Assembly: GCA_964348665.1 (NCBI GenBank)
Contig: CAYGDP010000001.1
Coordinates: 66,767-130,766, forward strand
Direction of reading: 5' to 3'
From: an uncultured Verrucomicrobiota bacterium
GTDB lineage: Bacteria; Verrucomicrobiota; Verrucomicrobiia; Palsa-1439; CAYGDP01
Length of the DNA: 64,000 bases
A program made the position numbers and the translations under genes. The notes under the pieces are model-generated. The model saw only the letters and a program-made list of their open reading frames with translations, did no database searches and was not told where the DNA came from. How positions within the stretch are numbered: the stretch's first letter is position 1; each line of letters opens with the position of its first letter. Shown one piece after another: positions 21,541 through 59,638 of the stretch.

Positions 21541-21714
21541 AGTTTTCAGTCTTTCCTGAAACAATAATAACTTCGATTTGTGATTTGTCAAGGGGTGATT
21601 GTGATTTTATTCACAAGCGGCTGGACTAGGCGAAATGTTTGAAACACAGCGAGCACGGTTTAACAAGGTGGAAGAGGCCACAAGGCGACAGGAGGATTAA
21701 ATGTTTGAAAAGGG

Positions 21715-23241
21715 TTAGGAGGCGGCGCCGTTGGCGGAAAACGCGGTTAAGGCATCAGAAATTAGAGCGGCGACCCTTTCAGGATGCCAGTCAGGATAGA
21801 AGGCGCGAATCTTTCCTTCGAGGTCAGCGGGGGAGGTGCTGGCCAAAATCATTTGACGCACAGGCGCAAGGCTTCCGCGGAAGGCTCGCGCCAGCTCTGC
21901 CTTACCAGCGCGAGCTATTTCATCGTTCGCCTTCAAAGCTGGCGGTAAAGCTGCGCTCAAAGGCATCATTCCGGCGAACGGAATTTGTGGGACCGGAGCC
22001 TTCCTCTGAAGCGGGAACCCGACACGCTCACTCAAGGTTGGCAGAGCTTCATCGGTAGGCTCGATTCCCGCCGCTGAAATTTTTGCCAATAAATCCCCGG
22101 TCGCCGCTGCCTGTTTGGCAGACTCCGCACCCCAAACAGCCCGGGGCGCACGCCCGATACCCCCATTGATTTTTACCAGTTGATCGAAGAGCTGGTCTTT
22201 CAAAGTCTCGCCAAGCATCTTCCCATCAAACTGGCGAATATCCTCTCGCACGTTCTCCTGTCCAGTCGCGACGCCACTACCAAGTCCGGTACTTTGCGCC
22301 TCACTGGAAAGTGTTTGGCCAACGATCAACTTGGATTTCTCCCTATTACAGATCGAGTGGAATTTCTCGAACGCCTCACCGCTTGATGCGGCCAATGCCT
22401 GCATGATCTCGATTTCGGTTTCGTTCGTTACAACCAAGCCACCGATCCTAGTGGACAAAGCAAACGCACGCTCCAACGTCGTGCGGCTCGCATCATCGGC
22501 CGCGTCATATTTCCCCACCATGAACGGTGCGCCGTACCTTTCCAGAAACCGACCCCACCAATCGCGATCCATCGCCGACAACAGCCACCAAAACAAAATG
22601 GATCGCATCGGTCCACCCCAATTATCCGCCGTAGTGAGCAAATGCCCGCGATGGATGATGTACCGATTGGGATCCGGCTCGTGTTTCGTCGCCAGAATAC
22701 GCCCCTCGGCATCCGTATCACGAATCATCATCACGCCGGATGTGTAATCGAGAAGATCGTAAGGCACTGGCACAAGCTCGCCGATCTCATACTTCACGCC
22801 CTTCATCGTGCTGGGACGAAACACCTTCTCCAAAAGCGCCGATGGCCACAACGTCGAATCCAATAAATGAGAACATGCCTTTATCCAGCCCGACGAATTG
22901 CCCACCAAATTCGTCACCAAACTGCCCGCCTTCACGTCATCATCGTTCTCCTTGTCATGCGGCACGATTGCCATTGGATCACCCAACACCGCAAGCTTAC
23001 GCTTGGCAAATTCCCCCTGGGTGTGGGCATCACTCAAAATTACGTCTCGATACAAAGCGAACAACTGCTGCGTATCGCCCGACTCCGCAGCCCGCAAAAT
23101 TCCGTGCAACCGATCCGCCGTAATCGTCGGCGCCACCGCGCTCAGTTGGTAGCGCTGATTAAAAGTTGTCACCCGCGTCGTCGGCACCTGTGCCGCCGCG
23201 ATCCGCTTCACCGATTCATTCACTTCATTATCTTCAGACAT
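21715..23241 (-). CDS. phage portal protein (Mu gp29-like, DUF935)
   Basis: 508 aa. Sits immediately downstream of the terminase genes. Size and overall character match Mu gp29. Confidence 0.7.
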   Translation of the reverse strand: MSEDNEVNESVKRIAAAQVPTTRVTTFNQRYQLSAVAPTITADRLHGILRAAESGDTQQLFALYRDVILSDAHTQGEFAKRKLAVLGDPMAIVPHDKENDDDVKAGSLVTNLVGNSSGWIKACSHLLDSTLWPSALLEKVFRPSTMKGVKYEIGELVPVPYDLLDYTSGVMMIRDTDAEGRILATKHEPDPNRYIIHRGHLLTTADNWGGPMRSILFWWLLSAMDRDWWGRFLERYGAPFMVGKYDAADDASRTTLERAFALSTRIGGLVVTNETEIEIMQALAASSGEAFEKFHSICNREKSKLIVGQTLSSEAQSTGLGSGVATGQENVREDIRQFDGKMLGETLKDQLFDQLVKINGGIGRAPRAVWGAESAKQAAATGDLLAKISAAGIEPTDEALPTLSERVGFPLQRKAPVPQIPFAGMMPLSAALPPALKANDEIARAGKAELARAFRGSLAPVRQMILASTSPADLEGKIRAFYPDWHPERVAALISDALTAFSANGAAS

Positions 23242-23944
23242 TCAACACCTCCGATGATTCTCGATTTGCCAAAGGATTTTTTACCGACCGGCCCGCCATC
23301 TCTCCGCCGTAGCCCCCCACACGGGCAGCCCGAGCTGACACAGGGCCGCCACCACGCCGTAACGCATGGATACTCAACTTTATTGCCTCAAAACAATCCG
23401 CGTGATTCCCCATCTCATCCACGTCCGCCTCAAACCCACCCTCCACACGCTTCACGCTCCGCAGATCATCCCGCAGCCAAGCCGCTTGCGGCAACAACAC
23501 ACGTCCATCATCCATCAACCCAACGAACTGATTCCCCAAAAACGTCTTCGTCTTCATCTCCTCACCCATGTACTTGACATTCTCGCTGGCGATCACCAGC
23601 TCCACCACAACCTTACCCGCCAATTTACTCCGTAGCGCAGCCGCAAAAAACCGCTCGCTCGTCGCCTCAAGACAAACTCTCCGCACGCGCTTGTTGTCGG
23701 GCAAATCCAGCGCGTACCGCAGAACCTCCTCATAGACCTCGGGCTTGTTTGTCTTGAACCGTACCACGCACCGCACTATGTAATCCCCCCCCACCAACTC
23801 CGTCACCGCGATCGCCGACGGGTTCGACTTTTCCTTCGCCGTCGTCCCGATGTCCCCGCCGATACCGATCAAGCCATTCGTCAATAGACTTTTCCAGCCA
23901 ATCGGCCAAACCTCAGCAGGCGTTATGCGACGATCCGGTTTCAT
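23234..23944 (-). CDS. terminase large subunit, C-terminal nuclease domain (separate ORF)
   Basis: LIGIGGDIGTTAKEKSNPSAIAV matches the TerL nuclease motif (hhGhDxGxxxDxSAhhV). ATGA-coupled to the upstream methyltransferase gene. Confidence 0.6.
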   Translation of the reverse strand: MKPDRRITPAEVWPIGWKSLLTNGLIGIGGDIGTTAKEKSNPSAIAVTELVGGDYIVRCVVRFKTNKPEVYEEVLRYALDLPDNKRVRRVCLEATSERFFAAALRSKLAGKVVVELVIASENVKYMGEEMKTKTFLGNQFVGLMDDGRVLLPQAAWLRDDLRSVKRVEGGFEADVDEMGNHADCFEAIKLSIHALRRGGGPVSARAARVGGYGGEMAGRSVKNPLANRESSEVLNV

Positions 23945-25110
23945 GGATTCAACTCGCGGTACAAAGTGACAAAGGCTTTTGCGGCGACGGCCGGCACGAC
24001 TCCGTTGCCAGCCAATCGCAGTTCATCCACTCGAAAGACACGCCCATGAGCCACGCCACAAAGCGCGGGTTCAAGCGTCGGGTCGTGCGTAAGGACTTTG
24101 CCCCAAGCGTCGAGATCGTTTGGCCGTGGGGGAAATTCAGGCAAGCAACATTCAAAGGTTGTTTGTGGCGACGATGTTGTGATGGGCCTGCATTGTTGCT
24201 CGCATCTTGAACTGTCTCGGTCGGCCAAGTCACTGCATCTCTCGCCAGATACGCATTCCCCGCCTTGCTGCATGGCTTTTGACCGCTGCCCCTCATCGTT
24301 ACATCGTGGGCTTGTGGCGTTGTCCACATCTTTGCCATCCGATCCAGCCCAGCTTCCATCACTCTTTTCCCACCCCGACTCCGAAAGTTTTCCGCTGCCG
24401 GTGACGGCCACATTTTCGCCGCCGTTTGTAGTCCGTCGCCCGCCTTCTCGCTGATCCCTGATCGGTTGTTGTTGCCGTTCACCGATGGCGTCGGCCACTG
24501 AATTGCTTTCCCCAGCAAAGTTGGATTCGATGGGCCATGATGATTGTGCAATCGGCCCCCCGACCCATCCGCCTTGATTGGTGTCGGCCAATTGTCCGAG
24601 GATGAAGACTCGTTTTCGCACATGGCTTGCGCCGACTTCAGCCGCGCTGAATATGCCCCACGCGCGCCGATAACCATCCGCTTCCAAGTCCGCCAGCACT
24701 TTACGGAGGCCGTTGTTGATGTGACCCTCGACATTCTCGAAGAAAACCCAGCGCGGTCGCATCGTTTGATAGCCACGACGGACGGCTGGCCACAAGTTTC
24801 TCTCATCACGGAAGCCGCGCCGCTTTCCCGCGCTGCTGAACGGCTGACACGGATAGCTCGCAATGAAGATGTCCACGATGCCGCGAAAATCTTCTCCTGG
24901 GAAGGTCTTACAATCCGACCAAATAGGCGCTGCGTCCAGGAATCCCTGCTCCATTTTCGCAACCATGTTCGCAACTGCATACGCTTCGATCTCACAGCCA
25001 GCGATAAGCCGCATAGTTGGCAAGACTCGTTTGAGTCCGAGATACATACCGCCGTAGCCGAAGCACCATTCAACGCAATTAAGTTGTTGGGCAGAATCCA
25101 CATGGCTCAC
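23941..25110 (-). CDS. DNA (cytosine-5)-methyltransferase
   Basis: Motif I CFGYGGMYLG (FxGxGG), motif IV SYPCQPFSSAGKRRG, motif VI FENV, motif VIII HVRKRVF. Long Gly/Ser/Asp-rich variable region. C-terminal LAGNGVVPAV (motif X). Confidence 0.8.
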   Translation of the reverse strand: MSHVDSAQQLNCVEWCFGYGGMYLGLKRVLPTMRLIAGCEIEAYAVANMVAKMEQGFLDAAPIWSDCKTFPGEDFRGIVDIFIASYPCQPFSSAGKRRGFRDERNLWPAVRRGYQTMRPRWVFFENVEGHINNGLRKVLADLEADGYRRAWGIFSAAEVGASHVRKRVFILGQLADTNQGGWVGGPIAQSSWPIESNFAGESNSVADAIGERQQQPIRDQREGGRRTTNGGENVAVTGSGKLSESGWEKSDGSWAGSDGKDVDNATSPRCNDEGQRSKAMQQGGECVSGERCSDLADRDSSRCEQQCRPITTSSPQTTFECCLPEFPPRPNDLDAWGKVLTHDPTLEPALCGVAHGRVFRVDELRLAGNGVVPAVAAKAFVTLYRELNP

Positions 25111-25271
25111 GCCGCCTCCTGTTTTTTCAACCCATAGAACCGCTCGACCAAACGCCGGGCATAATCGGACAGCGGCACAAACCCGCGCTCGCTCTCGATC
25201 ACTTGGCCTTGCTTGGCCAACTCGTGAAGCCGATCCCGAATTTGATCGCGGTTCATGCTGTTAATTTTCAT
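25107..25271 (-). CDS. small hypothetical protein (54 aa) in the methyltransferase insertion cassette
   Basis: MKINSMNRDQIRDRLHELAKQGQVIESERGFVPLSDYARRLVERFYGLKKQEAA. ATGA-coupled on both sides. Confidence 0.3.
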   Translation of the reverse strand: MKINSMNRDQIRDRLHELAKQGQVIESERGFVPLSDYARRLVERFYGLKKQEAA

Positions 25272-25471
25272 AGTCTCATGCCATTGATCTCTTCTATGCA
25301 CTTCTGGACTTCCTTCAGGCAACCCATCATCACAGGCGATTTCCCATGAGGTTTGATGACATATCCAACCACAAACCCATTGTCATCACGCACGAATAGC
25401 TCCCAATCAGGCAAGACGGCGAACTCAACCCGATTTGGCTGTTGAATGTTGAGTGTTGGATTCGTTTTCAC
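25268..25471 (-). CDS. small hypothetical protein (67 aa) in the methyltransferase insertion cassette
   Basis: Start overlaps the TerL ATPase-domain stop as ATGA. Confidence 0.3.
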   Translation of the reverse strand: MKTNPTLNIQQPNRVEFAVLPDWELFVRDDNGFVVGYVIKPHGKSPVMMGCLKEVQKCIEEINGMRL

Positions 25472-26418
25472 GCGACGGCGATCTCCTCGGTTACGGCATT
25501 ACACATGCCTTTGTCTTTGCCGCGCTCCATCGCGAGGAAAATGCTTTGCAGCGACAGTGCCGCGACGCCGCCGCGAATAAATCGCAGCCCATAGTTTCTG
25601 TCCCATGCCGCTTTGTCGAACTCACGGGCGCGATGTTCATCGGGGTTGAGTGCATCCCCGCTCTCGCGGTCGTAACAGAGAAGCCCCGCAGCATAGCAGT
25701 CATACACATCGGCGCGATGCACCAATATCCCCGCCTGGCTTCGGTACCAGTTGCCCTCTCGGTTCACGGGAAATTCTTCTTGAGGCGGCACTAACATTTC
25801 CCACGAATAATGCGCATCATCGGGCGGCGGCGTAGTTGCCATCCGCAGGATAAAATTGGGGTTGTTATCAATGAACGGATACACCGCCTCCAAAACATCT
25901 TGTAGTTCCGGGATGCGTCCAAATTCATCCAGAAAAATATCACCTGTCCAACCAACTGCCGTATCGGGATTCGCCGCCACAACTACGCTGCGGCTGTAGC
26001 TGGTGTGCCCGTGAAAAATTTTCGTCTCAAGTTTTTGGTGCTCGAACAGATCGCACACCGCATCAAAATCTAAACCATCCGCGTTGCTCTCAAGCTTCAA
26101 CCCGCTGGCTGAAGCCGCCCCGCGATACCAGTCCAAAAGCTTCATCCACAGACGCGATTCTTTCCGCACGAACTCCACGCCAAGCCGCACGCTCGCGCTC
26201 GCGAAGATGCACTCGTGATCCGGCCGCGACATCATCCGCCGCAAAGCGATCCCCGCCAGCGTCGTTGATTTTCCCGCCTGCCGTCGCCACAACAGACCCG
26301 CACGCCGAAGATCATCGCGCCAAAAAAAAGGCTGTTGATACGCCCGCAACGCGATCAGCGGCGCCGCCTCGATCTGCTCGGCATTTTTTTTCGTTTTCAC
26401 CATCGCGACATTCCTCAA
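25468..26418 (-). CDS. terminase large subunit, N-terminal ATPase domain (separate ORF)
   Basis: Walker A RRQAGKSTT, Walker B IFLDEFGRIP. 316 aa. Confidence 0.7.
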   Translation of the reverse strand: MRNVAMVKTKKNAEQIEAAPLIALRAYQQPFFWRDDLRRAGLLWRRQAGKSTTLAGIALRRMMSRPDHECIFASASVRLGVEFVRKESRLWMKLLDWYRGAASASGLKLESNADGLDFDAVCDLFEHQKLETKIFHGHTSYSRSVVVAANPDTAVGWTGDIFLDEFGRIPELQDVLEAVYPFIDNNPNFILRMATTPPPDDAHYSWEMLVPPQEEFPVNREGNWYRSQAGILVHRADVYDCYAAGLLCYDRESGDALNPDEHRAREFDKAAWDRNYGLRFIRGGVAALSLQSIFLAMERGKDKGMCNAVTEEIAVA

Positions 26419-26420
26419 AT

Positions 26421-26497
26421 TGGTAGCGGGAGTCGGATTTGAACCGACGATCTTTAGGTTATGGGCCTAACGAGATTCCAGGCTTCTCCATCCCGCA
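26421..26497 (-). tRNA. tRNA with CAU anticodon (Met/Ile2-like), phage-encoded
   Basis: Cloverleaf: acceptor 6 bp plus a U1xU72 mismatch, D-stem GAGA/UCUC with GG in the loop, anticodon stem UUAGG/CCUAA, loop CCCAUAA (C33 instead of U33), T-stem GUCGG/CCGAC with loop UUCAAAU, discriminator A and encoded CCA. Confidence 0.6.
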
Positions 26498-26510: not shown

Positions 26511-27161
26511 TCATCGGCGGCCCTCCGTGGCTGGCTTTTCCCCGAACATCAGCTTGATCAAACGCTCCAGCTTGATCTCGCGGTCCGCGCCGCTCGCCAC
26601 AATCTCCCGCGCCTTCTTGTCGTTAAAGAATTTTTCGAGCAACTCCGCCGTCTCGCGCTGGAACCGTGCTTCCTCGATCGCCAGCTTGCGGCTGGCCTGT
26701 TTGATTTTTTCCAAATCGCCCAAGGCACGCAGAATCGAGGCGTACGCAGCCGGATCTTTGCGCTGAAGCTTCTTGAAGTCCGTCACCGAGAACGAACTCA
26801 GAATATCAACCAGATGCGCCGCCGCCATCGCGCTCCCCGCATCCGACGCCAGATTCGGCAACCCGCTCGACAACGCCTCACGTGAAAGCTCGATGATCCG
26901 CTCCGTCACCTCACGCTTACTCAACCAATCCTGATAGCCGTCTTTCCGCCACTTCGATAGATTCTGGTAGCTGATCTTCTGACCGTCGAACTCCTCGCGC
27001 ATCACGCGCTTTACATCCGGCTGATCGTTGAGCCATTCGAGTATCCGGCGATCCGATTGGCCGTCGCGAATCCGGCGATTGATTTCAGACCGGGTGCTAT
27101 GCGGCAGCCGCCCAATCTTACCGCGGCGCACGCGGCTCTGTAGTGCGAGTCGAGTCGTCAT
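26511..27161 (-). CDS. terminase small subunit-like (Mu gp27-like, DUF3486)
   Basis: RRGKIGRLPHSTRSEINRRIRDGQSDRRILEWLN resembles the Mu gp27 N-terminus (RRSKIDLLPPELR...DG.LTQDEIL..IN). Sits immediately upstream of TerL. Confidence 0.5.
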   Translation of the reverse strand: MTTRLALQSRVRRGKIGRLPHSTRSEINRRIRDGQSDRRILEWLNDQPDVKRVMREEFDGQKISYQNLSKWRKDGYQDWLSKREVTERIIELSREALSSGLPNLASDAGSAMAAAHLVDILSSFSVTDFKKLQRKDPAAYASILRALGDLEKIKQASRKLAIEEARFQRETAELLEKFFNDKKAREIVASGADREIKLERLIKLMFGEKPATEGRR

Positions 27162-27568
27162 CGGAATCGTTCGTTGCGAAGCTGGCGTAGTTCAGTTTCG
27201 AGTTGATCAATCTTACGGTGTAGATCCAACTCGATTGTCTCAACCTCCTCGATCCAGGCGGGCGATACGATCTGAAGCGGCTTACCCAAAACCACCGTCT
27301 TCGCGTCCCCGCCTGAATACCGGGAAATTTCATTGAGCGCCACCGCGCGAAACCGTTCCGCCGCGGCTGCGTCGCGGAACACCAGCCGCGTACCGGCGGG
27401 CAACCCCAATCGAAACGCATTACCCGTTGCCGTTGGGAGGGCGCTTACCGTGGGGCGCGTGAAGTTCGCGCAACCGCCGCCGCAAAGCATCAGCGGCAGC
27501 ATAATCGCCAGCGCGCTCAAAATCCCGAATCTGTTTTTGAAGAGCCGCATATTTTGCATCGTTATCAT
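27158..27568 (-). CDS. lipoprotein with C-terminal coiled coil (lysis cassette; possible spanin component)
   Basis: Signal peptide with a lipobox-like LMLCGGGCA, and a C-terminal LDLHRKIDQLETELRQLRNERFR coiled coil. Confidence 0.35.
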   Translation of the reverse strand: MITMQNMRLFKNRFGILSALAIMLPLMLCGGGCANFTRPTVSALPTATGNAFRLGLPAGTRLVFRDAAAAERFRAVALNEISRYSGGDAKTVVLGKPLQIVSPAWIEEVETIELDLHRKIDQLETELRQLRNERFR

Positions 27569-27674
27569 CCTCCCGCTGCATCGGGGTTGGATTGTATTTG
27601 CGCTTGAACCACTCGGCCCAACCGCTTACCAGCCCCGACAACAGCTTTAAGATTGAACCAATCCAGCCCATCAC
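27420..27674 (-). CDS. small single-TM protein (lysis cassette)
   Basis: N-terminal TM MMGWIGSILKLLSGLVSGWAEWF followed by a charged C-terminus. Overlaps the neighbouring ORFs. Confidence 0.3.
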   Translation of the reverse strand: MMGWIGSILKLLSGLVSGWAEWFKRKYNPTPMQREDDNDAKYAALQKQIRDFERAGDYAAADALRRRLRELHAPHGKRPPNGNG

Positions 27675-28069
27675 GTTTTACCCATCAGATTTTTTTGAGC
27701 TTGATCCGCCAACTCTCGAAGGCCGACACCCGCGCTGCCGAGAATCGCCCCCAGTAAAGTCCCCTGACCGAAACTCTGCGACATCGCGAAATCAGCGGCC
27801 GCGCCGAGCAGCGGCGCCAGGATTGGCAACAGCCAGCCCGGAAACTTCGGCAGAAAAATTTTCAGCAAACCGAGCACGACTGGCACGATAATCGGCACCA
27901 ACAAAAGAAAAGTGCTATTCACCGGCGCCGCCGCACTCGGCGTAGCGACGATCGGCGCGGCCCCCGCCGTAGCCGCAGCACCCGCCGCCGCATCATCACC
28001 AAAACCAAACATCACCAACGCGCCCAGCGCGCAGGTCAGGCACATCACGAACAATGTAAAACGCTTCAT
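27671..28069 (-). CDS. holin-like polytopic membrane protein
   Basis: 132 aa with 3-4 TMs. Position upstream of the terminase genes is the same as the Mu lysis module. Confidence 0.4.
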   Translation of the reverse strand: MKRFTLFVMCLTCALGALVMFGFGDDAAAGAAATAGAAPIVATPSAAAPVNSTFLLLVPIIVPVVLGLLKIFLPKFPGWLLPILAPLLGAAADFAMSQSFGQGTLLGAILGSAGVGLRELADQAQKNLMGKT

Positions 28070-28422
28070 TTTGAATCTCCTTTTTGGGTTGATCCCTGCA
28101 ATTGGCCAATCGCAAGGAAGAGTTGATTGAAACTCGCCTGATTGGATCGCGTCATCTCGTCCAGTTTCTTATCCATCGCCCGATCGTGGGCGTCTCGGGC
28201 ATTTTGAAACTCGGCGATCCTGGCATTCAGGTCCGACTCGGTTTTCGCCAGCGCCGCCTTCGTGGCAAAATCGTCGGACTTACCGCGGAGCCGATGCACC
28301 ACGTTCAGGATTCCGGCGAAGAGGTTTACCAGCAGCAGCAACGACACCAGCACACCGCCCACCAGTGCCCACGATGGCGGATCCGATGGTAAGTTTGTTT
28401 CCGCAAACAGGGGCGCGTACAT
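28066..28422 (-). CDS. type-II membrane protein with periplasmic coiled coil (i-spanin/Rz-like)
   Basis: N-terminal TM WALVGGVLVSLLLLVNLFAGIL followed by a helical charged domain. Confidence 0.4.
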   Translation of the reverse strand: MYAPLFAETNLPSDPPSWALVGGVLVSLLLLVNLFAGILNVVHRLRGKSDDFATKAALAKTESDLNARIAEFQNARDAHDRAMDKKLDEMTRSNQASFNQLFLAIGQLQGSTQKGDSK

Positions 28423-28460: not shown

Positions 28461-28487
28461 TGCCCTGCGCGCCCTGCGCGCCCTGCG
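28461..28487. repeat. 9-bp tandem repeat (CCCTGCGCG x3)
   Basis: Three perfect tandem copies in the intergenic region. Near-palindromic GC-rich flanks. Confidence 0.5.
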
Positions 28488-28554
28488 CGCGGCAGGCCAG
28501 CGTTACGATTGAAGTTGGAACAAGCTCCGTTGGTCTGGTTGGCAAGGAGAAGAA

Positions 28555-28830
28555 TCAGCCTAATGGTAGACCAAAATCTTCCGTTGGAAGTTGAAGGGCG
28601 GCGCAGATTGAGCGGATAGTATCAGGCAATAGCCTCTCTTCATCTTCAATGCAGACAAGGCAGACAAGCGACTCACCATGGAACTCACGCTGGAGGTATT
28701 GAACCAAATCTTGACCATCTGGACCCTCGATGGAAATTTCCGAGTGTTTCAACTGAACATCGTGATTTTCTTCAACGAAGGCGACAAATTCTCGCCACGT
28801 CGGGAATTGCGCCATCGGGTATGCGCTCAT
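28555..28830 (-). CDS. hypothetical protein
   Basis: 91-aa ORF, ATGA-coupled to 28827..29231. Confidence 0.3.
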   Translation of the reverse strand: MSAYPMAQFPTWREFVAFVEENHDVQLKHSEISIEGPDGQDLVQYLQREFHGESLVCLVCIEDEERLLPDTIRSICAALQLPTEDFGLPLG

Positions 28831-29231
28831 TCACACTGTTGTGCTTCCGCCACATGGACGGGCGCAGCCCCACGCGGCAACTCATTAGTCGGAAACCGTT
28901 TTGGCACAAGCTCACTGGGAGGCGCTAAAGAAAAAGGCTGCTCCAAGGCGCGGCCGCTTTGATAAGTTTCCCAAAATCTCTTTGGGGCTGGCTTGATTCC
29001 GTTGAGCACCGGCGTTTTCGTCTCGAAGGCATATACGAAATACCCCAGCACCGTTCGCATGAACCGATTTTCCAAGCGCTCCAACGTTGGGGCTTGAGCT
29101 ACAATGTCGTATTCCAGCCCTTGCGCCACCCAGACTTCTTTCCCTTTGATTGCCCGTGGGAACACCAAGACTTGAATTTTGAACTCACTGCCTTTCGGCG
29201 AGAGACGATTCATGGGGATCTCCATTTTCAT
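28827..29231 (-). CDS. hypothetical protein
   Basis: 134-aa ORF in the prophage left arm. Confidence 0.3.
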   Translation of the reverse strand: MKMEIPMNRLSPKGSEFKIQVLVFPRAIKGKEVWVAQGLEYDIVAQAPTLERLENRFMRTVLGYFVYAFETKTPVLNGIKPAPKRFWETYQSGRALEQPFSLAPPSELVPKRFPTNELPRGAAPVHVAEAQQCE

Positions 29232-29382
29232 TTCGGGGGCAACGACACTCAGAAATATCAGAAGTCGTGCATCTCCCGATGCTTCAAAACTACCACACCT
29301 ACCCCAAGCCTGTCAACAACCCCGCTCAGAACTCGCCCAGGAAAAACCCGACTGAAATGTTCCGCGCCATCTTCCCTTGCGC

Positions 29383-32147: not shown

Positions 32148-32195
32148 GTCACGCCCAAAGAATCAAGCACGCTGCCCGCATAACCCTCCACGCAA

Positions 32196-33489: not shown

Positions 33490-33503
33490 TTTTTACAAAA
33501 AAA

Positions 33504-33535
33504 TGTGTTGACTCAACACAAAAACGTGTTAGATT
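33504..33535. promoter_or_regulatory. operator/promoter region between the repressor and Cro/Ner-like genes
   Basis: Perfect palindrome TGTGTTGAcTCAACACA (33504-33520), overlapping palindrome AACACaaaaacGTGTT (33515-33530). Sigma-70-like -35 TTGACT and -10 TAGATT with a 16-nt spacer. Confidence 0.5.
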
Positions 33536-48095: not shown

Positions 48096-48123
48096 CTCAC
48101 GAATCTGAAAGGAAATCACCACC

Positions 48124-49550: not shown

Positions 49551-49552
49551 TC

Positions 49553-50029: not shown

Positions 50030-50042
50030 AAAGGATAACACT

Positions 50043-50420: not shown

Positions 50421-50428
50421 GTACGTTT

Positions 50429-50902: not shown

Positions 50903-50910
50903 GTTGGGCA

Positions 50911-51093
50911 TTGGTGCTTATTGATACGGTGTGCAGTGAATATGGTTGGTCGCTGGAGGTCGTCATGGAGATGCCGCTGGCAATAGTATTTGCGCTATAT
51001 GCAGCAATCAACGAGCGGTACGGCAATAAGCCCAGGGGGCTTTCGTACACACAAGCGGAATTAGTGGAAATATTTACAGGTGATCCACCATGA
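50911..51093 (+). CDS. small ORF preceding the tape measure (possible chaperone frameshift partner)
   Basis: 60 aa, ATGA-coupled to the tape-measure gene. Confidence 0.25.
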   Translation: MVLIDTVCSEYGWSLEVVMEMPLAIVFALYAAINERYGNKPRGLSYTQAELVEIFTGDPP

Positions 51094-52439: not shown

Positions 52440-52441
52440 CC

Positions 52442-53185
52442 ATGGGAACACCAGTTTGGAAAGGGGCTACGGGGATTACATTGTTGGCTGGATACCCGAA
52501 GATCCAAGGCCAATTGAGCAAGCGCACGGCCGTGGCGAAATACGCTGCCCCATGGCAGACAATTCTATCAAGCGTGCCCATTATCGGCGCGCAGAGTCCC
52601 GATCTGCCGCCCGATCTCGAAATCGAGACTTACGATCAGGAGCGTGGCGACACGACTGATGGGATACTGACCGTTCATTTCAAGACCGCCGATGGCGTCG
52701 CGCCATCAACGCCGCCCGTCTTGCCGCGCACGGAAATTTTAGTGCGTTGGGAACGAGTCCAAAAACGCTTGAAGGAACATCCACGCTACAATTCCGCACC
52801 CTTGGCACTGACAGCAGAACAATTCGCTAAAATCGAGAATGCGCTCAACGAGCGCGATGACGGCAAGCGCGCCGCGATCGTCGCCGCCTTCACTGGCGCA
52901 CAACCCGAACTCTACGCATCCTTGGAGAGCGGTAACGACAGCTATTGGATCTCCATTCCGATCGTTACTCGAATCACGCATAGCTACACCAAGCCTACCT
53001 CTGGTGTCGCGTTGAACTTACGGCAGCTTCCACCGGACTACCCTGGATACGCGACGCGTTGGCTTAAGACGCAGGACGAAGCTCGCCCGAATGGGCAAAT
53101 CTGGCAGCGGGTCGAGGAATGGACTGGTGTGGATCGAATCAATGAAAATGTTTACGCCGAGGCGGTCCCGCCAACTGCGCCATGA
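52442..53185 (+). CDS. hypothetical tail protein
   Basis: Positional. Confidence 0.3.
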   Translation: MGTPVWKGATGITLLAGYPKIQGQLSKRTAVAKYAAPWQTILSSVPIIGAQSPDLPPDLEIETYDQERGDTTDGILTVHFKTADGVAPSTPPVLPRTEILVRWERVQKRLKEHPRYNSAPLALTAEQFAKIENALNERDDGKRAAIVAAFTGAQPELYASLESGNDSYWISIPIVTRITHSYTKPTSGVALNLRQLPPDYPGYATRWLKTQDEARPNGQIWQRVEEWTGVDRINENVYAEAVPPTAP

Positions 53186-53730
53186 GACCGCCGCGATACG
53201 CCCGCAAAGGTGAAGACGCGAGGACCCTGTGGATCCTATTCAATGAACTCAAAGACTTTTGTATCTCGTTCACGCCGCTGCCATCGGGCGATATTCTAGG
53301 GGAAAGAACTTCGACGGGAACATCGTATCGGCTGGCCAAAGATCGGCGCGGCGGTGCGAAATCTGGCACTGATTACTTTCCGCGATTCCACATCGTAGCC
53401 AAGAGCGGACTGACCGTAACGATGAAGTTTGGAGATCGAGTTTTTCCACTGCGCGGCGTAGGCGGTCAACCATTAAAACTCACTCTAGCGGAAGGCGATA
53501 TGACACTGCCGGATAACTCGACACAGCAAATTTACATCGCTGTGAATCCCGATCCATTTGTGCCAACGTCGCTGACCAGGCATTCTGCCACAGTTACCCC
53601 TGATCAACCGGCGCCGTTGGCTTTGAGGTATTTGCACAAGGCAACAGTGGTTACTTCGAGCGGCATTGTAACGAGCATATTGAACTACGACATGGACCAA
53701 GTGGATTGGTCGTTCAGTTTCTACGAGTAG
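53182..53730 (+). CDS. hypothetical tail protein
   Basis: Positional, ATGA-coupled. Confidence 0.3.
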   Translation: MRPPRYARKGEDARTLWILFNELKDFCISFTPLPSGDILGERTSTGTSYRLAKDRRGGAKSGTDYFPRFHIVAKSGLTVTMKFGDRVFPLRGVGGQPLKLTLAEGDMTLPDNSTQQIYIAVNPDPFVPTSLTRHSATVTPDQPAPLALRYLHKATVVTSSGIVTSILNYDMDQVDWSFSFYE

Positions 53731-53734
53731 AGCC

Positions 53735-54814
53735 ATGCCATTCACCCAATTTCCCGTTTATTCCGCGCGACTGTCAACCTTGGCGAAAAACAAGGATGTT
53801 ACGGAACTCAATGAATTGTTTGCTGGCCTTGATGAGAGGCAAGCTGCGAAGACGTGCGCCGCGTTAAATCCCACGGTGCTTCCCGACTATCACCCTTCAC
53901 ATCACCGGCACGTGGCAGATATTCAACGATCAATCCAGTTACTTCTGTCGAGTCCAGCACCGTACCTCGTTCCGACCCTATGTCGTCCCTACGATCACGC
54001 CAGTCCAGTCTACCAGGACTTGCTCGATGGCTTCTGCATAGAAGCCGGAATTGGCGGGAGCATCAGCGGGGCAAAGAAATGGACTACGCATCCTCAACGC
54101 GGAACCGCGTTGGGCGCGCCAGAGCAATACGACTCGCGCGCGCCGAATCCGCCACCCTTTACTCAGCGGGCTTTTGCAGAACATCTTAACGAAACGTGGA
54201 ATGCGTTGAAGGAATTGCGGTGGTTGGATCGGAGCGACATGTTCACCTTCACCGAGGTGAAGTATAAGGGTGCGACGGTTCAGGGGGCGGAGCATTTTGG
54301 GGATACGCCAGCATCGATCTACGCGATGGCCGTAGCGGCGGCGGAGTCATTCGGCTGGGTTGACGCCAGTAGCGTCCAAGCCTGTCCACACGAACATAGG
54401 ACGTTGTTTTCCAGAACTAGCATTCCAGCGTTGGGTCAATCCTTCATTCGAGTGGACGTCGTGCGAGCGAGGATCACCTACCAGATAGACTATGGAGACT
54501 GTAACATTCAAGAAGCCAAGTTTTTCGGCTATGCCAGTTCACAGGTACCAGCGGCGTTCATTCCGAACTGCAACGCCTCTTTACTGGCGGACGCTCATTC
54601 TTTCTCGAATCCATCCGAGCCGTTCGGACTTCCGCACAACGAGTCCCCATCCACGTCAGACTCTTTCTGTGGGGCAAGTGCCGCCGAGGGAACATTCATC
54701 TTCGAGTTTACTTTCGCACCCCTACCTGGGTTGGTTGGCGACGGTTCGTCGTCCGCCGGATGGCAGAAGCACTTGCTCGGCCTGGCTGTAAAACCGAATT
54801 TCTCGTACATCTAA
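53735..54814 (+). CDS. hypothetical tail protein
   Basis: Positional. Confidence 0.3.
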   Translation: MPFTQFPVYSARLSTLAKNKDVTELNELFAGLDERQAAKTCAALNPTVLPDYHPSHHRHVADIQRSIQLLLSSPAPYLVPTLCRPYDHASPVYQDLLDGFCIEAGIGGSISGAKKWTTHPQRGTALGAPEQYDSRAPNPPPFTQRAFAEHLNETWNALKELRWLDRSDMFTFTEVKYKGATVQGAEHFGDTPASIYAMAVAAAESFGWVDASSVQACPHEHRTLFSRTSIPALGQSFIRVDVVRARITYQIDYGDCNIQEAKFFGYASSQVPAAFIPNCNASLLADAHSFSNPSEPFGLPHNESPSTSDSFCGASAAEGTFIFEFTFAPLPGLVGDGSSSAGWQKHLLGLAVKPNFSYI

Positions 54815-54888: not shown

Positions 54889-55830
54889 GTGGCGAGCTTC
54901 CTTAATATTTTCTTCGACGTTCAGAATGGACGGATGTATAGCTCGCTGGCGACGGCGCTTCCCCTCGATCGTTTGAAGTTCAAGCAAAACACCCAGGTCA
55001 AAATGCGACTGTATCCTGTCGAGCGCGGGAGCAATCTCGCTTTGCAATACGTGGACTTGACCGGCAACACAATCAGGGTCGGGGTTTGCGGTGGCACCGG
55101 GAAACCCACCGGCACGGCCAGTGATCCAACACCACAGACCATCGCGCTGGCGACGAATTTCAACGCGATCGCCAATGGTTTCGAGACGGCCACAAACCTT
55201 GATTTCAACAATACTGATGTTGCTACTTTTTTGGGATCGCTGGCGGCCAAGGAGAGCACATTCGAGATCGAGGCGACGGATCCAAGCGGCTATCGGACCA
55301 AGTACGTCCAAGAGGGTTGCGATGTTTTGGCCGCGGTGATCGAGAGCACGCCGAGCGGACCTTCGCCTGGCCAGACCTATTATACAAAGGAGGAAGCGGA
55401 CGGACTTTTTAAGCGTGGGTTCGTCAAAATTCTTGCCGCCGATGAGACGTACACGACGACGACTTTAGCGGATTCGGCTGGTCTAACCGGGGCGTTGGTG
55501 AACGATGAACTGTACGAGTTTGAGGGGGAGTTTATCTTTACTTGTGCTGGCGACCCAGGGGGGATCAAGTATTCGGTCAGCGGTCCAACCACCCCTGTCT
55601 TTGTGAGGTTTACGGATGAGTTCAATGATCCAACCGAGAAAACCGCCTACGACCAAACTTTTGAAACTCAATCTGATGGTGTTAATACGTGGCGGATTCG
55701 ATTGAGTGGATCCATCAAGACTGCGGCATCGGGCAATCTCAAACCTCGATTCGCGCAATTGCTCTCCAACGCTACGCCGGTCACGATCAAAAAGGGTAGC
55801 TGGTTTCGCGCAGGCAGGAAGCTTGGATAA
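54889..55830 (+). CDS. hypothetical tail/baseplate protein
   Basis: Positional. Gly/Thr-rich beta character. Confidence 0.3.
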   Translation: MASFLNIFFDVQNGRMYSSLATALPLDRLKFKQNTQVKMRLYPVERGSNLALQYVDLTGNTIRVGVCGGTGKPTGTASDPTPQTIALATNFNAIANGFETATNLDFNNTDVATFLGSLAAKESTFEIEATDPSGYRTKYVQEGCDVLAAVIESTPSGPSPGQTYYTKEEADGLFKRGFVKILAADETYTTTTLADSAGLTGALVNDELYEFEGEFIFTCAGDPGGIKYSVSGPTTPVFVRFTDEFNDPTEKTAYDQTFETQSDGVNTWRIRLSGSIKTAASGNLKPRFAQLLSNATPVTIKKGSWFRAGRKLG

Positions 55831-55833
55831 AAA

Positions 55834-58449
55834 ATGAACCGTTTTACTTCATACATTCAAGGCCGACATGTAAGCGCGACGGCGCCGAAGGATGGGCACA
55901 GCTTTGTTTTCAACAAAGCAACGGGTGAGTACGATGTAAAATTCGATGGTCAACGCGTCTTGTTGCCGGTCAGGCTGGTCAGAGAATCGGCGCTGCCAGC
56001 GTTCACGCACTCAAACGGTGTGTTGACCGCATCGGCAAACGGGGCATTCCCGTCAACGGATAGCGTTACTCCAGCGCTCAACGACGAAATCGTGGTGGTG
56101 GGTGAGACTGGAGCCAACAAAAAATACAACGGCCCATATAAGTTGACCGACGCCGGAAGCGCGGGAACACCATGGGTGCTAACGCGGCGGTCGGACGCTA
56201 ACGAGAATCACGAGTTTCAGCCAGGCATGTTGATCGGCGTGATGGAGGGCACTCTAAACGCCGGAACGGTTTGGCAATTCTCGAATACGACCGAGCCTGT
56301 ATTGGGCACGACTGATCTTGGTTTCCGAAAGGCGAGCGGTTCCGGCGGCGTTCCTGGTGGAGCCAACCGAGAGATTCAGTATAACAATAATGGCGTCTTC
56401 GGCGGCAGTGCTCGCTACAAATTTCTCGACGACGGCGTTACGTTCGTATTATTTGATCACGCTGATCAAGTCACACTGGATCGGTGGACCGTGGATGGTT
56501 TGGCGCATGGTTTTACCGATCAAGCTCCCACCGACACATTCTTTTTGATCGGTGTCTACAACTTAGCTACTGCTGGCGGTGTCTGGCTGGCAGGCTTGGC
56601 AGCGGATACCAATCCCGCATGGGGTCAATATGGTGCAAACATCGGCGCGAGCGCTACGCTCCCTGTGCAGCGTTTTAGCGCGTCCAAAAAGAGTGGAGCG
56701 GATTTTGCCGCGTGCGCAGCCACAGACTTGATGTATGAGTTTGCAAATAACGAGAGCACGCCACGGCTACGGATCTTCGGCGATGGGATGGTTGATTTCA
56801 TAAAGCCTGATGCCAGCGCCGCGATGTTTCGATTTCGGATGACGGGGTTAGACCATGGGATTACGGGCATTGCCCCCACGGATGTTTGGGGTGTAATACA
56901 GCAATCAGCGGCCGCTGGCGGGGTTTATGTGCTTGGCTTGGGGTCTAATACCGGCCAGGTGCTATATTTCGATGCGATAAACACTGGCGCAAGCACAACT
57001 GTCGCTCCAGTTCATTTCAACATCGCGAAAAAATCCGGCACCGGATCAGCGGCATGTGCGGCAGGCGATCTCATTTTCAAGATACAAAACTACGCGACGA
57101 GCGCGCTTCAATTGTATGGCGATGGCAGCATGACGTTGGCGGGTGCATTGACCGTTCAGGGTAATCTGACGATCAATGGAACGACGACAACCATTGATTC
57201 GACGACCCTCGATGTCGAGGACCGGGTGATACACGTCAACCATACCACCGGGGCCGACACCCCCGTCCCTACCGCAATTTGCGGGGTGGGCGTCCACCGC
57301 GGTGCTTCCGCGGGAGTTGCTCGCGATCACGCTGCGTTTCTGTGGGACGAGGCAAACACCAGGTTTATCCTCGCATGGAATACTGGTGGTGATGATTCCA
57401 CGATCGGTGCGCAACTTGCGCTGCACGCACTTTCGTTCACAGGTTCCGGCGCTGGTCTTACATCACTCAACGCTGGTTCATTGTCGTCGGGCACGGTCCC
57501 AACCGCTCGTCTTGGAAGCGGCACGGCAGATAGCACTACAGTTTTGCGCGGCGACTCAACATGGGCAACTTTCACCAGTCCGCCGTTCTCGGATGGTTCA
57601 GCAATTCTGAAAGGCAGCGCCGATGCCACGAAGCTTTTGCGGTTCGAGATTGATGGATTTACGACGGGAACGACGCGAGAGATCATCGTGCCAAATGCGG
57701 ACGATACGATGGCGGTGTTGGCAGCCGCGCAGACATTCACCAATAAAACCCTCACAAGCCCAAAGATCGGCACGGGAATTTATGACACAAACGGAAATGA
57801 ATTGTTTTTGCTTACCGCTACGGCCAGCGCGGTGAATGAATTGACTTATAACAACGCTGCAACGGGCGCAAATCCTACGTGGGCGTCCACTGGTGGTGAT
57901 GCCAATATTGGCCAAGACTTCAAGATGAAGGGGACCGGAGCGGTCAGGATACTAAACGCTACCGGTGATGATGTGCTTCATTTTCAGGCGTCCAATGCTA
58001 CGTTGCGCGTTGGGAAATCAGGGGTAACGGGTGGAATCATCACAATTGATTCTGGCGGCTCAATGCGTAATTGGGCAGCGCAGGGTGGCATTGAGTTTAT
58101 CAACTCGGGCGCCGGGGCGTACAAGCCGATCGCGGCGGATTTCTTCGAGTCTGTAAGCGCAGGGACTTTGACGGCCCCAGCCTATCGCTTCAGGGATGAA
58201 ACGGCTTTAGGCTTCTATCGGGTTGGATCCAGCGAAATCGGGGCGACAGGGGAAATTTTCACTGTCGGGAAAACGAATGCGCTCGCTAGAATCCGCGGGC
58301 GGGGGTTTTACACGGCCAATCCATCTGATCCGCCAGATGATCAATGGGATTTGCAGGTTATTGACACTGGTGCAACGGTCGTTTTGCGTTGTCGTTACAG
58401 AGACGTCAGCGCAGCCTCAACAAAAACCGGAGATATTCCATTGGCGTAA
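55834..58449 (+). CDS. tail fibre/host-specificity protein
   Basis: 871 aa, Gly/Thr/Ala-rich with repetitive beta-helix-like segments. Last large structural gene. Confidence 0.5.
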   Translation: MNRFTSYIQGRHVSATAPKDGHSFVFNKATGEYDVKFDGQRVLLPVRLVRESALPAFTHSNGVLTASANGAFPSTDSVTPALNDEIVVVGETGANKKYNGPYKLTDAGSAGTPWVLTRRSDANENHEFQPGMLIGVMEGTLNAGTVWQFSNTTEPVLGTTDLGFRKASGSGGVPGGANREIQYNNNGVFGGSARYKFLDDGVTFVLFDHADQVTLDRWTVDGLAHGFTDQAPTDTFFLIGVYNLATAGGVWLAGLAADTNPAWGQYGANIGASATLPVQRFSASKKSGADFAACAATDLMYEFANNESTPRLRIFGDGMVDFIKPDASAAMFRFRMTGLDHGITGIAPTDVWGVIQQSAAAGGVYVLGLGSNTGQVLYFDAINTGASTTVAPVHFNIAKKSGTGSAACAAGDLIFKIQNYATSALQLYGDGSMTLAGALTVQGNLTINGTTTTIDSTTLDVEDRVIHVNHTTGADTPVPTAICGVGVHRGASAGVARDHAAFLWDEANTRFILAWNTGGDDSTIGAQLALHALSFTGSGAGLTSLNAGSLSSGTVPTARLGSGTADSTTVLRGDSTWATFTSPPFSDGSAILKGSADATKLLRFEIDGFTTGTTREIIVPNADDTMAVLAAAQTFTNKTLTSPKIGTGIYDTNGNELFLLTATASAVNELTYNNAATGANPTWASTGGDANIGQDFKMKGTGAVRILNATGDDVLHFQASNATLRVGKSGVTGGIITIDSGGSMRNWAAQGGIEFINSGAGAYKPIAADFFESVSAGTLTAPAYRFRDETALGFYRVGSSEIGATGEIFTVGKTNALARIRGRGFYTANPSDPPDDQWDLQVIDTGATVVLRCRYRDVSAASTKTGDIPLA

Positions 58450-58478
58450 TATGTCCACCCATTTCGAGAAAGGAAACC

Positions 58479-58673
58479 ATGAAGATTGAACTCCAGAAGA
58501 TTCCCAAAGACGACCCGGCAGCGATGCAGAATGAAAAACTGTCGGATTATCACGCGGACTTAAAGAAACGATTGGCCAAGGCTGTGGCCGACAATGACGC
58601 CACCTACGCCGTGGTAGTGGCGCTACAACAAAAGAAAAAGGACTGCGAGGCAGTGATGCTCGCCAGATTTTAA
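58479..58673 (+). CDS. small hypothetical protein
   Basis: Ribosome-binding site AAGGAAACC. 64 aa. Confidence 0.3.
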   Translation: MKIELQKIPKDDPAAMQNEKLSDYHADLKKRLAKAVADNDATYAVVVALQQKKKDCEAVMLARF

Positions 58674-58675
58674 CC

Positions 58676-59152
58676 ATGAAAAAATCAGACCTATTGCGAT
58701 TCCATGATGGCCTGGTGGATGTCATGCATCTCGGGGGTGTAGAGTTCAGTTACGCCGTCAACCTGAACTACTTTGCCATTCGTGACCAAGTGGCCGCGTT
58801 ACGCAAATCAATCGAGCCGGGTGAGGATTACGAGGCTTTCGAGAGAGAGAGGCTTGAGCTTTGCAAGAAGCACGCGAAAAAAGACGACAAGGGTAAGCCC
58901 ATGACAATCCCGATACCGGGTGGGATCCGGTACGTGTTTGGCGATTGCGTCGACCTCTTCGAGAAGCAACTTACCGTCCTCCGCAAGAAGCACAAATCCG
59001 CGATCGAGGCGCAAGAAAAGCGCGAGAAGGATTACGCGGAAATCCTGAAACAGGATTTCCAGTTTGCGGTCTCCATGGTCAAGCCGGAGAAATGCCCCAA
59101 GGAGATCACCGGGGCGAAAATGATGGCGATTTGGGAGATGGTTGAAAAGTAA
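58676..59152 (+). CDS. hypothetical protein (last prophage gene)
   Basis: 158 aa, Lys/Glu-rich. Confidence 0.35.
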   Translation: MKKSDLLRFHDGLVDVMHLGGVEFSYAVNLNYFAIRDQVAALRKSIEPGEDYEAFERERLELCKKHAKKDDKGKPMTIPIPGGIRYVFGDCVDLFEKQLTVLRKKHKSAIEAQEKREKDYAEILKQDFQFAVSMVKPEKCPKEITGAKMMAIWEMVEK

Positions 59153-59638
59153 TATGCGGAAGCTCCGCGCCAACCCCGCGACGATCCTGCGAACCTCCCG
59201 CCACCCTTCTCCAAGGCTAAATCCATCCAGCGTCCCGCACCCTTTTCGGGTCAAAAATTGACCCTTTTCAAACTTTTTGGCGGGTTACAGCGGGGAAGGT
59301 GGAATGGTAGCCGAGCTTGGATTCGAATTGTCGCCGCGCGCTCAAAACGCCAGCGTTGTTTCCGAGTTTCAGCGCGCTATTCTTGGCAGCCAGTTGAATG
59401 GCTTCTTTTTTTAAAGTGGCGCAGATCCAACGATTGCTGTACTGCCGCCAGCGTTAACGATAGACAAACTCGTTCCTATTTCATAGGACCCTTCCACGTT
59501 CATCCACTCTCATAGCGCCTGCGCCCAGACTATCATCCCAGCCCCTCACCTTTAACGTGCCGCTCGCTCGTCCGCAGCACGAAAAACGGGAATCGGACGA
59601 GTCGGGGGGCTCGTCTCTACCTCTTTTTAGAGGTTGCT

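Follow-up and report, generated by a model that had tools for sequence, protein, structure and literature searches.

How does a transposable phage come to keep its terminase and portal genes on one strand and the rest of its head genes on the other? The question is raised by a stretch of 64,000 nucleotides from an uncultured Verrucomicrobiota bacterium (contig CAYGDP010000001.1, positions 66,767 to 130,766; hereafter the window, meaning the whole stretch that was analysed), in which positions 21622-59289 (37,668 bp) hold one transposable, Mu-like prophage of the size of Mu. An earlier note on this DNA had delimited a single prophage at these positions, had placed its lysis-gp27-gp28-gp29 block on the strand opposite to F, left of the repressor and apart from F, and had described two diverging arms. 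The extent is supported by a pair of inverted 17-mers, by TG/CA ends and by host genes on both sides, the orientation of the block by the gene map below, and the divergence by a repressor gene (minus strand) that faces away from a Cro-like gene (plus strand) at 33.5 kb.

The prophage is real and probably intact. With good confidence, we read it as an apparently intact, siphovirus-type transposable prophage whose two arms diverge from the switch at 33.5 kb, whose layout is ancestral in its clade and whose late units on both arms may share a type of dedicated promoter. This layout is a new permutation of known two-armed layouts, and it characterises a clade of hitherto uncharacterised transposable phages; where organism names are attached to loci with transposase homologues, these are metagenome-assembled genomes of Verrucomicrobiota, bar one contig labelled Gammaproteobacteria.

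The two arms and the ends of the prophage

Outward from the repressor, the left arm carries the repressor, accessory genes, lysis-like open reading frames (ORFs), the small terminase (TerS), the large terminase (TerL) and the portal. Its phage genes, and the switch from which it starts, are as follows (HTH, helix-turn-helix).

21715-23241, minus strand: portal protein of the Mu gp29 type (PF06074 Portal_Mu, E 5.8e-61; phrog_113)
23234-23944, minus strand: TerL_C, stand-alone nuclease domain of TerL, 236 aa (weak PF17289 match)
25468-26418, minus strand: TerL_N, stand-alone ATPase domain of TerL, 316 aa (phrog_2, phrog_38)
26511-27161, minus strand: TerS-like protein (phrog_426, weak, E 2.9e-4)
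27158-27568, 27671-28069 and 28066-28422, minus strand: three small membrane- or lipoprotein-like ORFs, in the slot of the relatives' lysis genes
32800-33489, minus strand: CI/LexA-type repressor, HTH_3 plus Peptidase_S24 (PF00717, E 1e-16; PF01381; phrog_4)
33490-33541, no strand: divergent switch region, with the palindrome TGTGTTGAGTCAACACA at 33504-33520 and a rightward promoter-like TTGACT-16-TAGATT at 33508-33535

The right arm runs in the order Cro-like, ParB-like, MuA-like transposase, MuB, Gam, F, G, I, T, gp36 and tail.

33542-33802, plus strand: Cro/Ner-like small HTH protein, called in the Logan assembly annotation
34583-35395, plus strand: ParB_N-domain protein (PF02195)
35392-37194, plus strand: MuA/TnsB-type DDE transposase, 600 aa, highly divergent (phrog_310, E 8.5e-11)
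37214-38419, plus strand: MuB-like AAA+ ATPase (PF13401, E 2e-16; phrog_296, E 4e-25)
39100-39651, plus strand: Gam (PF07352, E 2e-30)
40123-41667, plus strand: small clade-conserved proteins at the end of the early region (159 aa; Zn-finger, 106 aa; winged-helix, 112 aa; HTH-like, 137 aa)
44196-45767, plus strand: F (gp30)-like minor head protein with a C-terminal extension (PF04233, E 3.5e-17; phrog_220, E 2e-40)
46042-46527, plus strand: G-like virion morphogenesis protein (PF05069; phrog_26)
46621-47484, plus strand: I-like protein, a retropepsin-like aspartyl protease plus the gpI scaffold C-terminal region (PF13975, E 8e-9; PF13650; PF10123, positions 166-330; phrog_328, C-terminal part only)
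47514-49035, plus strand: virion structural protein (phrog_1731, E 3e-39) and major capsid gpT (48124-49035; PF10124, E 8e-60)
49125-54814, plus strand: gp36 head-tail adaptor (49125-49550; PF07030; phrog_195), small connector and tail ORFs, distal tail
51090-52439, plus strand: tape measure protein, 449 aa (several tape-measure PHROGs)
54889-59152, plus strand: tail-fibre region of 313, 871 and 64 aa and the last phage gene, at 58676-59152 (weak PHROG matches only)

Membership among the transposable phages is indicated by the MuA/TnsB-type DDE transposase, by the MuB-like ATPase directly downstream of it and by the Mu-type head module. The transposase is so divergent that Pfam recognises HTH domains at its N terminus and no catalytic domain, and its family hidden Markov model finds no match among PDB sequences, so that structure prediction was needed. 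An AlphaFold2 model built from 24 homologues (predicted local distance difference test, pLDDT, 79.8) was matched by Foldseek to TnsB (8rdu) and to the Mu transpososome (4fcy), with E of about 5e-13. D184/D185, E257 and E299, all acidic, do not vary in the alignment and presumably form the catalytic triad. Given the MuB-like ATPase next door, Gam and a full Mu-type head set, the MuA-like assignment is sound. Against 50,697 phage genomes, neither tblastn with the transposase nor megablast with both halves of the prophage returned a match.

Each hallmark phage gene is present in a single copy, as self-tblastn detected no paralogue elsewhere in the window; to this extent the claim of the earlier note that all hallmarks occur once is correct, while the GemA-like protein that it counted among them finds no support. 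The early region contains about 4.5 kb of small genes between Gam and F, and those at 40123-41667, which are kept in 11-16 related loci, are candidate regulators, the 112-, 137- and 159-aa proteins being candidate activators. These three conserved proteins have no Pfam match at E<=1 and are neither GemA nor Mor/C: in hhalign comparisons with Mor/C and GemA alignments, probabilities were 1.0%, 0.6% and 0.2%, the last one for GemA, for which the reference alignment is small and of low quality. The Cro/Ner-like gene named by the note is recognised from its position and from weak HTH matches. The ParB_N gene stands upstream of the transposase across the clade and is matched in 32 related loci. A Zn-ribbon-like module (GWW...HY...CGKW...CxxC) occurs three times on the plus strand, at the N terminus of the MuB-like protein (37241-37420), in a short ORF after Gam (39679-39879) and in a short ORF just before F (43952-44203); tblastn ties the MuB N terminus to 43949-44218.

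The protease-scaffold gene of the note is correct as to its gpI scaffold region, but a retropepsin-type domain stands where the usual (serine) protease part of Mu I would be. This N-terminal domain is above threshold for both PF13975 and PF13650 and has an intact DTGA catalytic motif (VDTGAT). In a search of 5.8 billion proteins the fusion of a retropepsin with the gpI scaffold was found in the protein of this phage only, and our literature search found no paper linking a retropepsin-like enzyme with a prohead protease. The tail is taken to be non-contractile since there is no sheath. An ENA contig carries the same tail-fibre genes and the same host junction, and two further contigs carry a gene of this region.

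On the left arm, the portal gene ends 93 bp from the left terminus. A single-protein portal search of IMG/VR gave one weak locus only, so that alignments were needed. The TerS-like gene is kept at its position in 34 related loci. The three small ORFs next to it have no match in Pfam, PHROG or NCBIfam and no endolysin domain; the same slot holds Amidase_2, or a holin plus Peptidase_C1, in relatives. A role in lysis, as claimed by the note, is thus suggested by their position and their membrane- or lipoprotein-like character.

The outer edges of both arms carry the motif that delimits the element.

21622-21714, no strand: left end (attL-like), with a TG terminus, a degenerate outer motif at 21634-21648 and a perfect inner 17-mer at 21699-21715, which abuts the portal stop codon
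59239-59289, no strand: right end (attR-like), with motif copies at 59239-59247 and 59261-59277 and a CA terminus at 59289

The 17-mer ACCCTTTTCAAACWTTT, of the form ACCCTTTTCAAAC(A/T)TTT, has exactly two copies in the 64-kb window, and these are inverted (21699-21715, minus strand; 59261-59277, plus strand). They lie 77 nt from the proposed left terminus and 12 nt from the right one; the degenerate outer copy is 12 nt inside the left terminus. The relatives have arrays of comparable motifs that begin at the portal stop, several metagenomic contigs end 105-170 bp further, and the contig of L053 stops at the base homologous to position 59289 of the window. Together with the 17-mer pair, these arrays and contig stops place the termini well, at TG 21622 and CA 59289. 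The prophage therefore has inverted terminal arrays with 5'-TG...CA-3' termini, the sites of which are predicted to bind the transposase, and the related contigs that stop at the predicted end may be an indirect hint of packaging with heterogeneous host DNA. The flanking pentamers, GCGGC on the left and GCGGG on the right, match at 4/5 positions, which is suggestive, without being proof, of a 5-bp target-site duplication. When the right end of a full-length relative was sought via its left-end motif, the left end alone matched.

Two other boundaries were considered. One is a 13-bp inverted match (21443-21455 / 59417-59429) that links the MarR-like host gene with the right flank; the other is a 9-bp direct repeat, AAGGTGGAA, with one copy inside the left end (21665-21673) and one 7 bp outside the right end (59296-59304). 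Both are regarded as coincidences and were rejected because motif copies would fall outside the element and because they do not fit the end structure of the relatives.

Layout of the clade and of known transposable phages

More than 140 homologues of the transposase (40-58% identity) were found. About 20 distinct related contigs (35-57% protein identity), from other samples and uninterrupted, and of Verrucomicrobiota wherever an organism is given, show the layout of the window with the portal at the genome end. On 8 distinct contigs anchored on the transposase (L001, L003, L008, L014, L017, L019, L031, L032), portal-TerL-TerS lie on the strand opposite to MuA and F lies behind the early genes. 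The 24 IMG/VR loci anchored on the TerL ATPase have TerS-TerL_N(-TerL_C-portal) in one direction and MuA or ParB_N, where within the locus, on the opposite strand; the portal stop is at most ~750 bp from the contig end in 13 of the 17 such loci examined. In one relative (P0141), present on 17 contigs of up to 377 kb, the order is repressor-holin-Peptidase_C1-TerS-TerL_N-TerL_C-portal, and host genes follow 148 bp beyond. On the other hand, the distant relatives L059 and L060 (26% TerL identity) keep the Mu order TerL-portal-F-G-T-gp36. On our reading, the clade inherited this division of the late genes from its ancestor and has conserved it; it is neither a rearrangement nor an artefact of this genome.

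A second layout was found on 8 contigs (L010, L012, L015, L016, L027, L029, L030/L061, L034), in which I-T-gp36-tail sits inverted in the slot that separates repressor from TerS and F-G still close the early arm, so that nearly all late genes stand behind the repressor and F and G alone behind the early genes. Outward from the repressor, L061 has the I-like gene, a decoration protein, T, gp36, tail, TerS, TerL_N and TerL_C, the portal being expected past TerL_C, beyond the locus retrieved; on its early arm F and G come last, where the contig stops. The I-to-tail block fills the slot that is occupied by the accessory cargo in the window. Late modules evidently move between the arms in this lineage, with TerS-TerL(-portal) staying outermost on the repressor arm and F-G behind the early genes.

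Some loci with transposase homologues look different. In L024 (IMGVR_UViG_3300032579_001180), the transposase is preceded on its own strand by G, I, T and gp36, with ~4.7 kb between; the locus is either a third arrangement or another kind of element. Long contigs of metagenome-assembled genomes (L006, L007, L009, L018) carry close transposase homologues (51-56% identity) that have at most one further gene of the conserved phage set within 10 kb; non-phage elements, or phages of a very different kind, may employ this transposase family as well.

Compared with known systems, the prophage resembles Mu and D3112 in a genome of ~37 kb, in a repressor divergent from an early operon with A, B and Gam, in the Mu-type portal, F, G, I-scaffold, T and gp36 families, and in terminal transposase-site arrays with TG/CA ends. 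It does not share their collinear order: in Mu, lys-gp27-gp28-gp29-F-G are collinear on the early strand, whereas here the repressor strand (minus) carries the lysis-like genes, TerS, TerL and portal, left of the repressor, and F onward is on the plus strand. It further differs from Mu by the absence of a sequence-level MuA match and of Mor/C and GemA, by a two-gene TerL and by a non-contractile tail. As in the two-armed B3/BcepMu type, all genes left of the 33.5-kb switch are on the minus strand and all genes right of it on the plus strand; the separation of an early arm from a late arm that goes with this type is lacking, since F, G, I, T, gp36 and tail share the arm of the transposase.

The closest precedents each show part of the arrangement. 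In the BcepMu-type Burkholderia phage phiE255 (NC_009237), a regulator is followed on one strand by lysis, TerS, TerL and portal, and the early genes are opposite, as here; F, G, I, T and tail, however, continue behind the portal on the same arm, whereas in the window they stand behind the early genes on the other arm. Unlike the prophage, phiE255 encodes GemA and a Mor-family activator, its TerL is unsplit and its tail is contractile. Pseudomonas phage Bise (OR683401, host P. aeruginosa), which has the closest annotated portal (30% identity), carries late genes on both divergent arms like the prophage, but with the arms reversed, early-Mor-TerS-TerL-portal-F-G being on one and repressor-I-T-tail on the other. 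It resembles the second layout of the clade only in having I-T-tail behind the repressor, and its TerL is unsplit and its tail contractile. Leptospira prophages (TG1, NN, TG2) have been described as having a B3-like organisation in two arms that are read in opposite directions away from a set of one to three regulatory genes, and Leptospira transposable prophages as being without Mor/C (Olo Ndela et al., PMC8705779); the lack of Mor/C and GemA in the window therefore does not exclude membership of the wider group. They differ in host phylum and proteins, and in having contractile tails and transposases of the B3/Tn552 type. Bise, phiE255 and the Leptospira prophages thus offer precedents for late genes on two arms or for a packaging block that is set apart. 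None of the annotated phages examined has the partition seen here, in which lysis-like-TerS-TerL-portal follow the repressor and the genes from F on follow the early genes. The architecture, which the earlier note had called atypical, is so relative to Mu and D3112; in the Verrucomicrobiota clade it is the norm.

The split large terminase, the accessory genes and the host flanks

It escaped the earlier note that gp28, i.e. TerL, is encoded by two genes and that a methylase cassette stands between these. The TerL_N family profile matches the ATPase of T4 gp17 (E 3e-7), and an AlphaFold2 model of TerL_C (pLDDT 80.8) matches the terminase nuclease domains of G20c, human cytomegalovirus (HCMV), D6E and T4. 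Furthermore, TerL_N plus TerL_C (552 aa) align end to end with the single-ORF TerLs (549-563 aa) of the more distant relatives L050, L052 and L057, the break falling in the inter-domain linker of the fused proteins. Separate TerL_N and TerL_C genes occur in ~22 related loci, with a gap of -4 to +792 nt and some with extra ORFs; the gap in the window is 1.5 kb. All 45 database homologues of TerL_C are stand-alone proteins of 203-291 aa, which argues that the split is not damage. An intron or ribozyme was considered as an explanation of the gap and rejected because Rfam finds the tRNA only, and no intron; as for the literature, our search returned only the intron-split TerLs of jumbo phages.

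The gap and the rest of the left arm hold accessory features, and another lies in the early region.

23941-25471, minus strand: cassette between the TerL genes, with a C5 DNA methyltransferase (23941-25110) and ORFs 25107-25322 and 25268-25471
26421-26497, minus strand: tRNA-Met (CAT), between TerS and TerL_N (ARAGORN; Rfam RF00005)
28555-32810, minus strand: cargo of five ORFs, ~4.3 kb, GC 0.522
28555-28830 and 28827-29231, minus strand: cargo ORFs
29383-30231, minus strand: cargo HEAT-repeat protein (PADLOC PDLC02919, HEAT/ARM; weak, E 4e-5)
30228-32147, minus strand: cargo 639-aa secreted-looking protein with an HExxH motif
32196-32810, minus strand: cargo 204-aa lipoprotein-like ORF
42169-42807, plus strand: PolX-like nucleotidyltransferase with palm and thumb domains (PF14791, E 1e-15; NF006375)

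The methyltransferase is recognised by PF00145 (E 2e-29) and by methyltransferase models of PADLOC, and the cassette joins both TerL genes through overlapping stop and start codons. The methylase has a middle region of unusual low complexity, and a 384-aa ORF overlaps the methylase in another frame. Among the related loci L001-L061 (n=61), which served as comparison set for methylase and cargo, no tblastn match to the cassette was obtained in any locus, 4 of the 5 cargo ORFs have no match, and the 204-aa ORF has two weak ones (~30% identity, L039 and L055). No tRNA of any kind was found in 37 related loci, and the PolX-like gene has four weak matches among related loci. A Pfam scan of the cargo recognised the HEAT repeats alone, NCBIfam gave no match and PADLOC only the weak HEAT/ARM model match. 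The lower-GC cargo of ~3.6 kb that had been noticed earlier does exist, but the drop is modest (0.523 at 29232-32810 vs 0.553 for the whole prophage). The usual site of morons expressed in the lysogen is behind the repressor and on its strand, as is the cargo here.

The prophage is inserted between a MarR-like gene and a GH81 glycosidase gene.

Left host flank: Wzy_C, LemA, TauD, SRAP, ketohexokinase, aldehyde dehydrogenase, rhomboid and DCC1-like genes, and the MarR-like gene
Right host flank: GH81 and sulfatases

Within the left flank, a tandem array of four GIDE-like membrane proteins followed by LemA is found at 1491-5249 (plus strand), and three genes of DCC1-like thiol-disulfide oxidoreductases, two of them 52% identical, at 18804-20394 (minus strand).

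Late regulation, alternatives and significance

A triple direct repeat (GCGCGCAsG x3, 9-bp period) occurs at 4 sites in the window, against 0.07 expected, when three mismatches are tolerated, and all sites are inside the prophage.

28466-28490, minus strand: triple repeat GCGCGCAGG x3, ending 43 nt upstream of the ATG at 28422 of the first lysis-like ORF
33982-34006, plus strand: triple repeat, ending 47 nt upstream of the ATG at 34054 of an uncalled 96-aa ORF
46552-46576, plus strand: triple repeat, ending 44 nt upstream of the I start codon
54819-54843, plus strand: triple repeat, ending 45 nt upstream of the GTG at 54889 of the 313-aa tail gene

All four sites are co-oriented with the next gene, on both arms, and for three of the four downstream starts the annotations of public assemblies had independently made the same choice. 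TTAGACC stands six bases beyond the left-arm site and, at this same offset, beyond the I site. We infer that the repeats mark co-regulated, activator-dependent late promoters on both arms. The late promoters Plys, PI and PP of Mu are dependent on C and separately activated, and the repeat-marked late units are proposed as a functional analogy to them. A de novo search in relatives returned phage-specific repeats that are less regularly placed; L001 has its own triple repeat, ACCGCGAAGnnGCGAAGnnGCGAAG (GCGAAG, 8-bp period), at 7 sites on both arms, against 0.01 expected.

On the reading that we favour, transcription would diverge from the repressor/Cro-like switch at 33.5 kb, and the transposase and the MuB-like ATPase would act on the terminal inverted arrays of the ACCCTTTTCAAAC-type site for replication and integration. 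The rightward arm would express the early genes, then directly F-G, then the I-T-gp36 head genes and the tail; the leftward arm would express the repressor and the accessory genes of the lysogen, then the lysis-like genes, TerS, the two-part TerL and the portal. A phage activator, for which candidates were named above, may switch on the late units of both arms together, its site being the triple repeat in front of the left-arm lysis/packaging unit, the I (head) unit, the tail-fibre unit and one early-region ORF. If each late module has its own promoter in this way, modules could be moved or inverted between the arms without loss of function.

Several observations weigh against this reading. 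The sequence of the prophage recurs, with one mismatch in 21.5 kb, in a 101.7-kb MEGAHIT contig of ENA and in a pair of Logan contigs, but these contigs appear to come from one or two related samples and are weak as independent evidence; being near-identical, they leave the independent support for the layout to the relatives and not to reads. The Logan assembly of ERR3094295 splits the prophage into two contigs at 31968-32133, in the 5' part of the 639-aa cargo gene, possibly because of low coverage or strain heterogeneity at the cargo. Searches of the prophage for an endolysin, Mor/C or GemA returned no homologue, which makes its completeness an apparent one and its activator a putative one. 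A perfect AGCGG duplication (5/5) is obtained only with the register shifted by 1 nt, which costs the TG/CA termini, and no empty site, i.e. left and right flanks joined across a gap of 0-20 nt, was found in GTDB genomes and JGI metagenomes. Lastly, the repeat unit of the window is absent from the relatives, and the repeats of L001 are neither all co-oriented with genes nor equally spaced from starts, two points that keep the promoter proposal conditional.

These observations bear on several rival explanations. The break in the Logan assembly falls inside the block at 21.7-33.5 kb, which could be an assembly inversion of a prophage of normal Mu order, one of two refutations named by the earlier note. 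Yet the same assembly joins the portal end to the MarR-like flank and the repressor to the 204-aa cargo gene, as in the window, the ~20 uninterrupted contigs from other samples have the same orientation, and an inverted 17-mer stands beside the portal stop as expected of an end motif; such an inversion is extremely improbable. The other refutation, two unrelated remnants (a packaging/lysis fragment and a Mu-like fragment without terminase and portal) abutting at ~33.5 kb, is hardly credible either: that the arms are on opposite strands and that cargo of slightly lower GC lies between them is nothing specific, whereas portal, TerS, TerL, F, G, I and T are each present once and belong to mutually compatible Mu-type families, matching terminal motifs stand at the outer ends of both arms, and many relatives carry the same two-arm combination as one unit of 33-41 kb. 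The layout shared by the relatives, the single-copy hallmarks and the matched ends together exclude both. A decaying or domesticated prophage, disabled by insertions and by loss of the usual protease and endolysin, is somewhat less remote but still unlikely. It would agree with the lack of a recognised endolysin domain, with the aspartyl-protease domain, seen in no relative, in place of the gpI serine-protease part, and with a methylase cassette, a tRNA and cargo that are nearly without counterpart in related loci. The conserved ORFs are nevertheless full length and densely packed with overlapping stop and start codons, the DTGA motif and both prophage ends are intact, the TerL split is shared by every database homologue, and the lysis genes in the same slot of relatives are diverse and often unrecognisable.

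The repeats, for their part, might be other kinds of site, either arrays for the ParB_N or a nucleoid-type protein or GC-rich RNA hairpins, a possibility that we hold to be real but doubtful. GCGCGC is self-complementary, so that adjacent units could form hairpins, the early-region site is close to the ParB_N gene, the analogous repeats of L001 occur in both orientations, and a Mor/C homologue was not found in the prophage. However, co-orientation of the four sites at 43-47 nt from a start is the pattern expected of promoters and not of partition or nucleoid sites, sites on opposite arms share TTAGACC at the same offset, and the L001 unit GCGAAG is not self-complementary. The activator-dependent late promoter is the reading that we retain.

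A broader picture can be drawn tentatively. It is possible, though we would not call it probable, that a large unrecognised lineage exists in Verrucomicrobiota in which repeat-marked late cassettes have been repeatedly shuffled into at least two stable layouts, in which TerL works as two polypeptides with the gap as an accessory hotspot (here for the C5 methylase cassette), and in which a retropepsin-type protease has taken over prohead maturation in this phage. A Verrucomicrobia region of ~39 kb, in which two Mu-like proteins and a large terminase had been noted, was dismissed at the time as a defective prophage (PMC6920513) and may be an intact member of the clade. Standard markers miss such phages because the transposase has no match to Pfam catalytic domains, PDB sequences or the phage database and because Mor/C and GemA are missing; the present case provides a worked example and a search recipe for them. 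The split of TerL and the shuffling of modules deserve follow-up more than the strand arrangement itself: if the two proteins act together, the clade-wide split would be a natural experiment on the coupling of packaging-motor activities. Furthermore, the two layouts of the clade, set beside those of Mu, BcepMu and Bise, indicate that late modules of transposable phages can occupy either arm, and that gene order would be less constrained than has been argued, provided each module has its own promoter.

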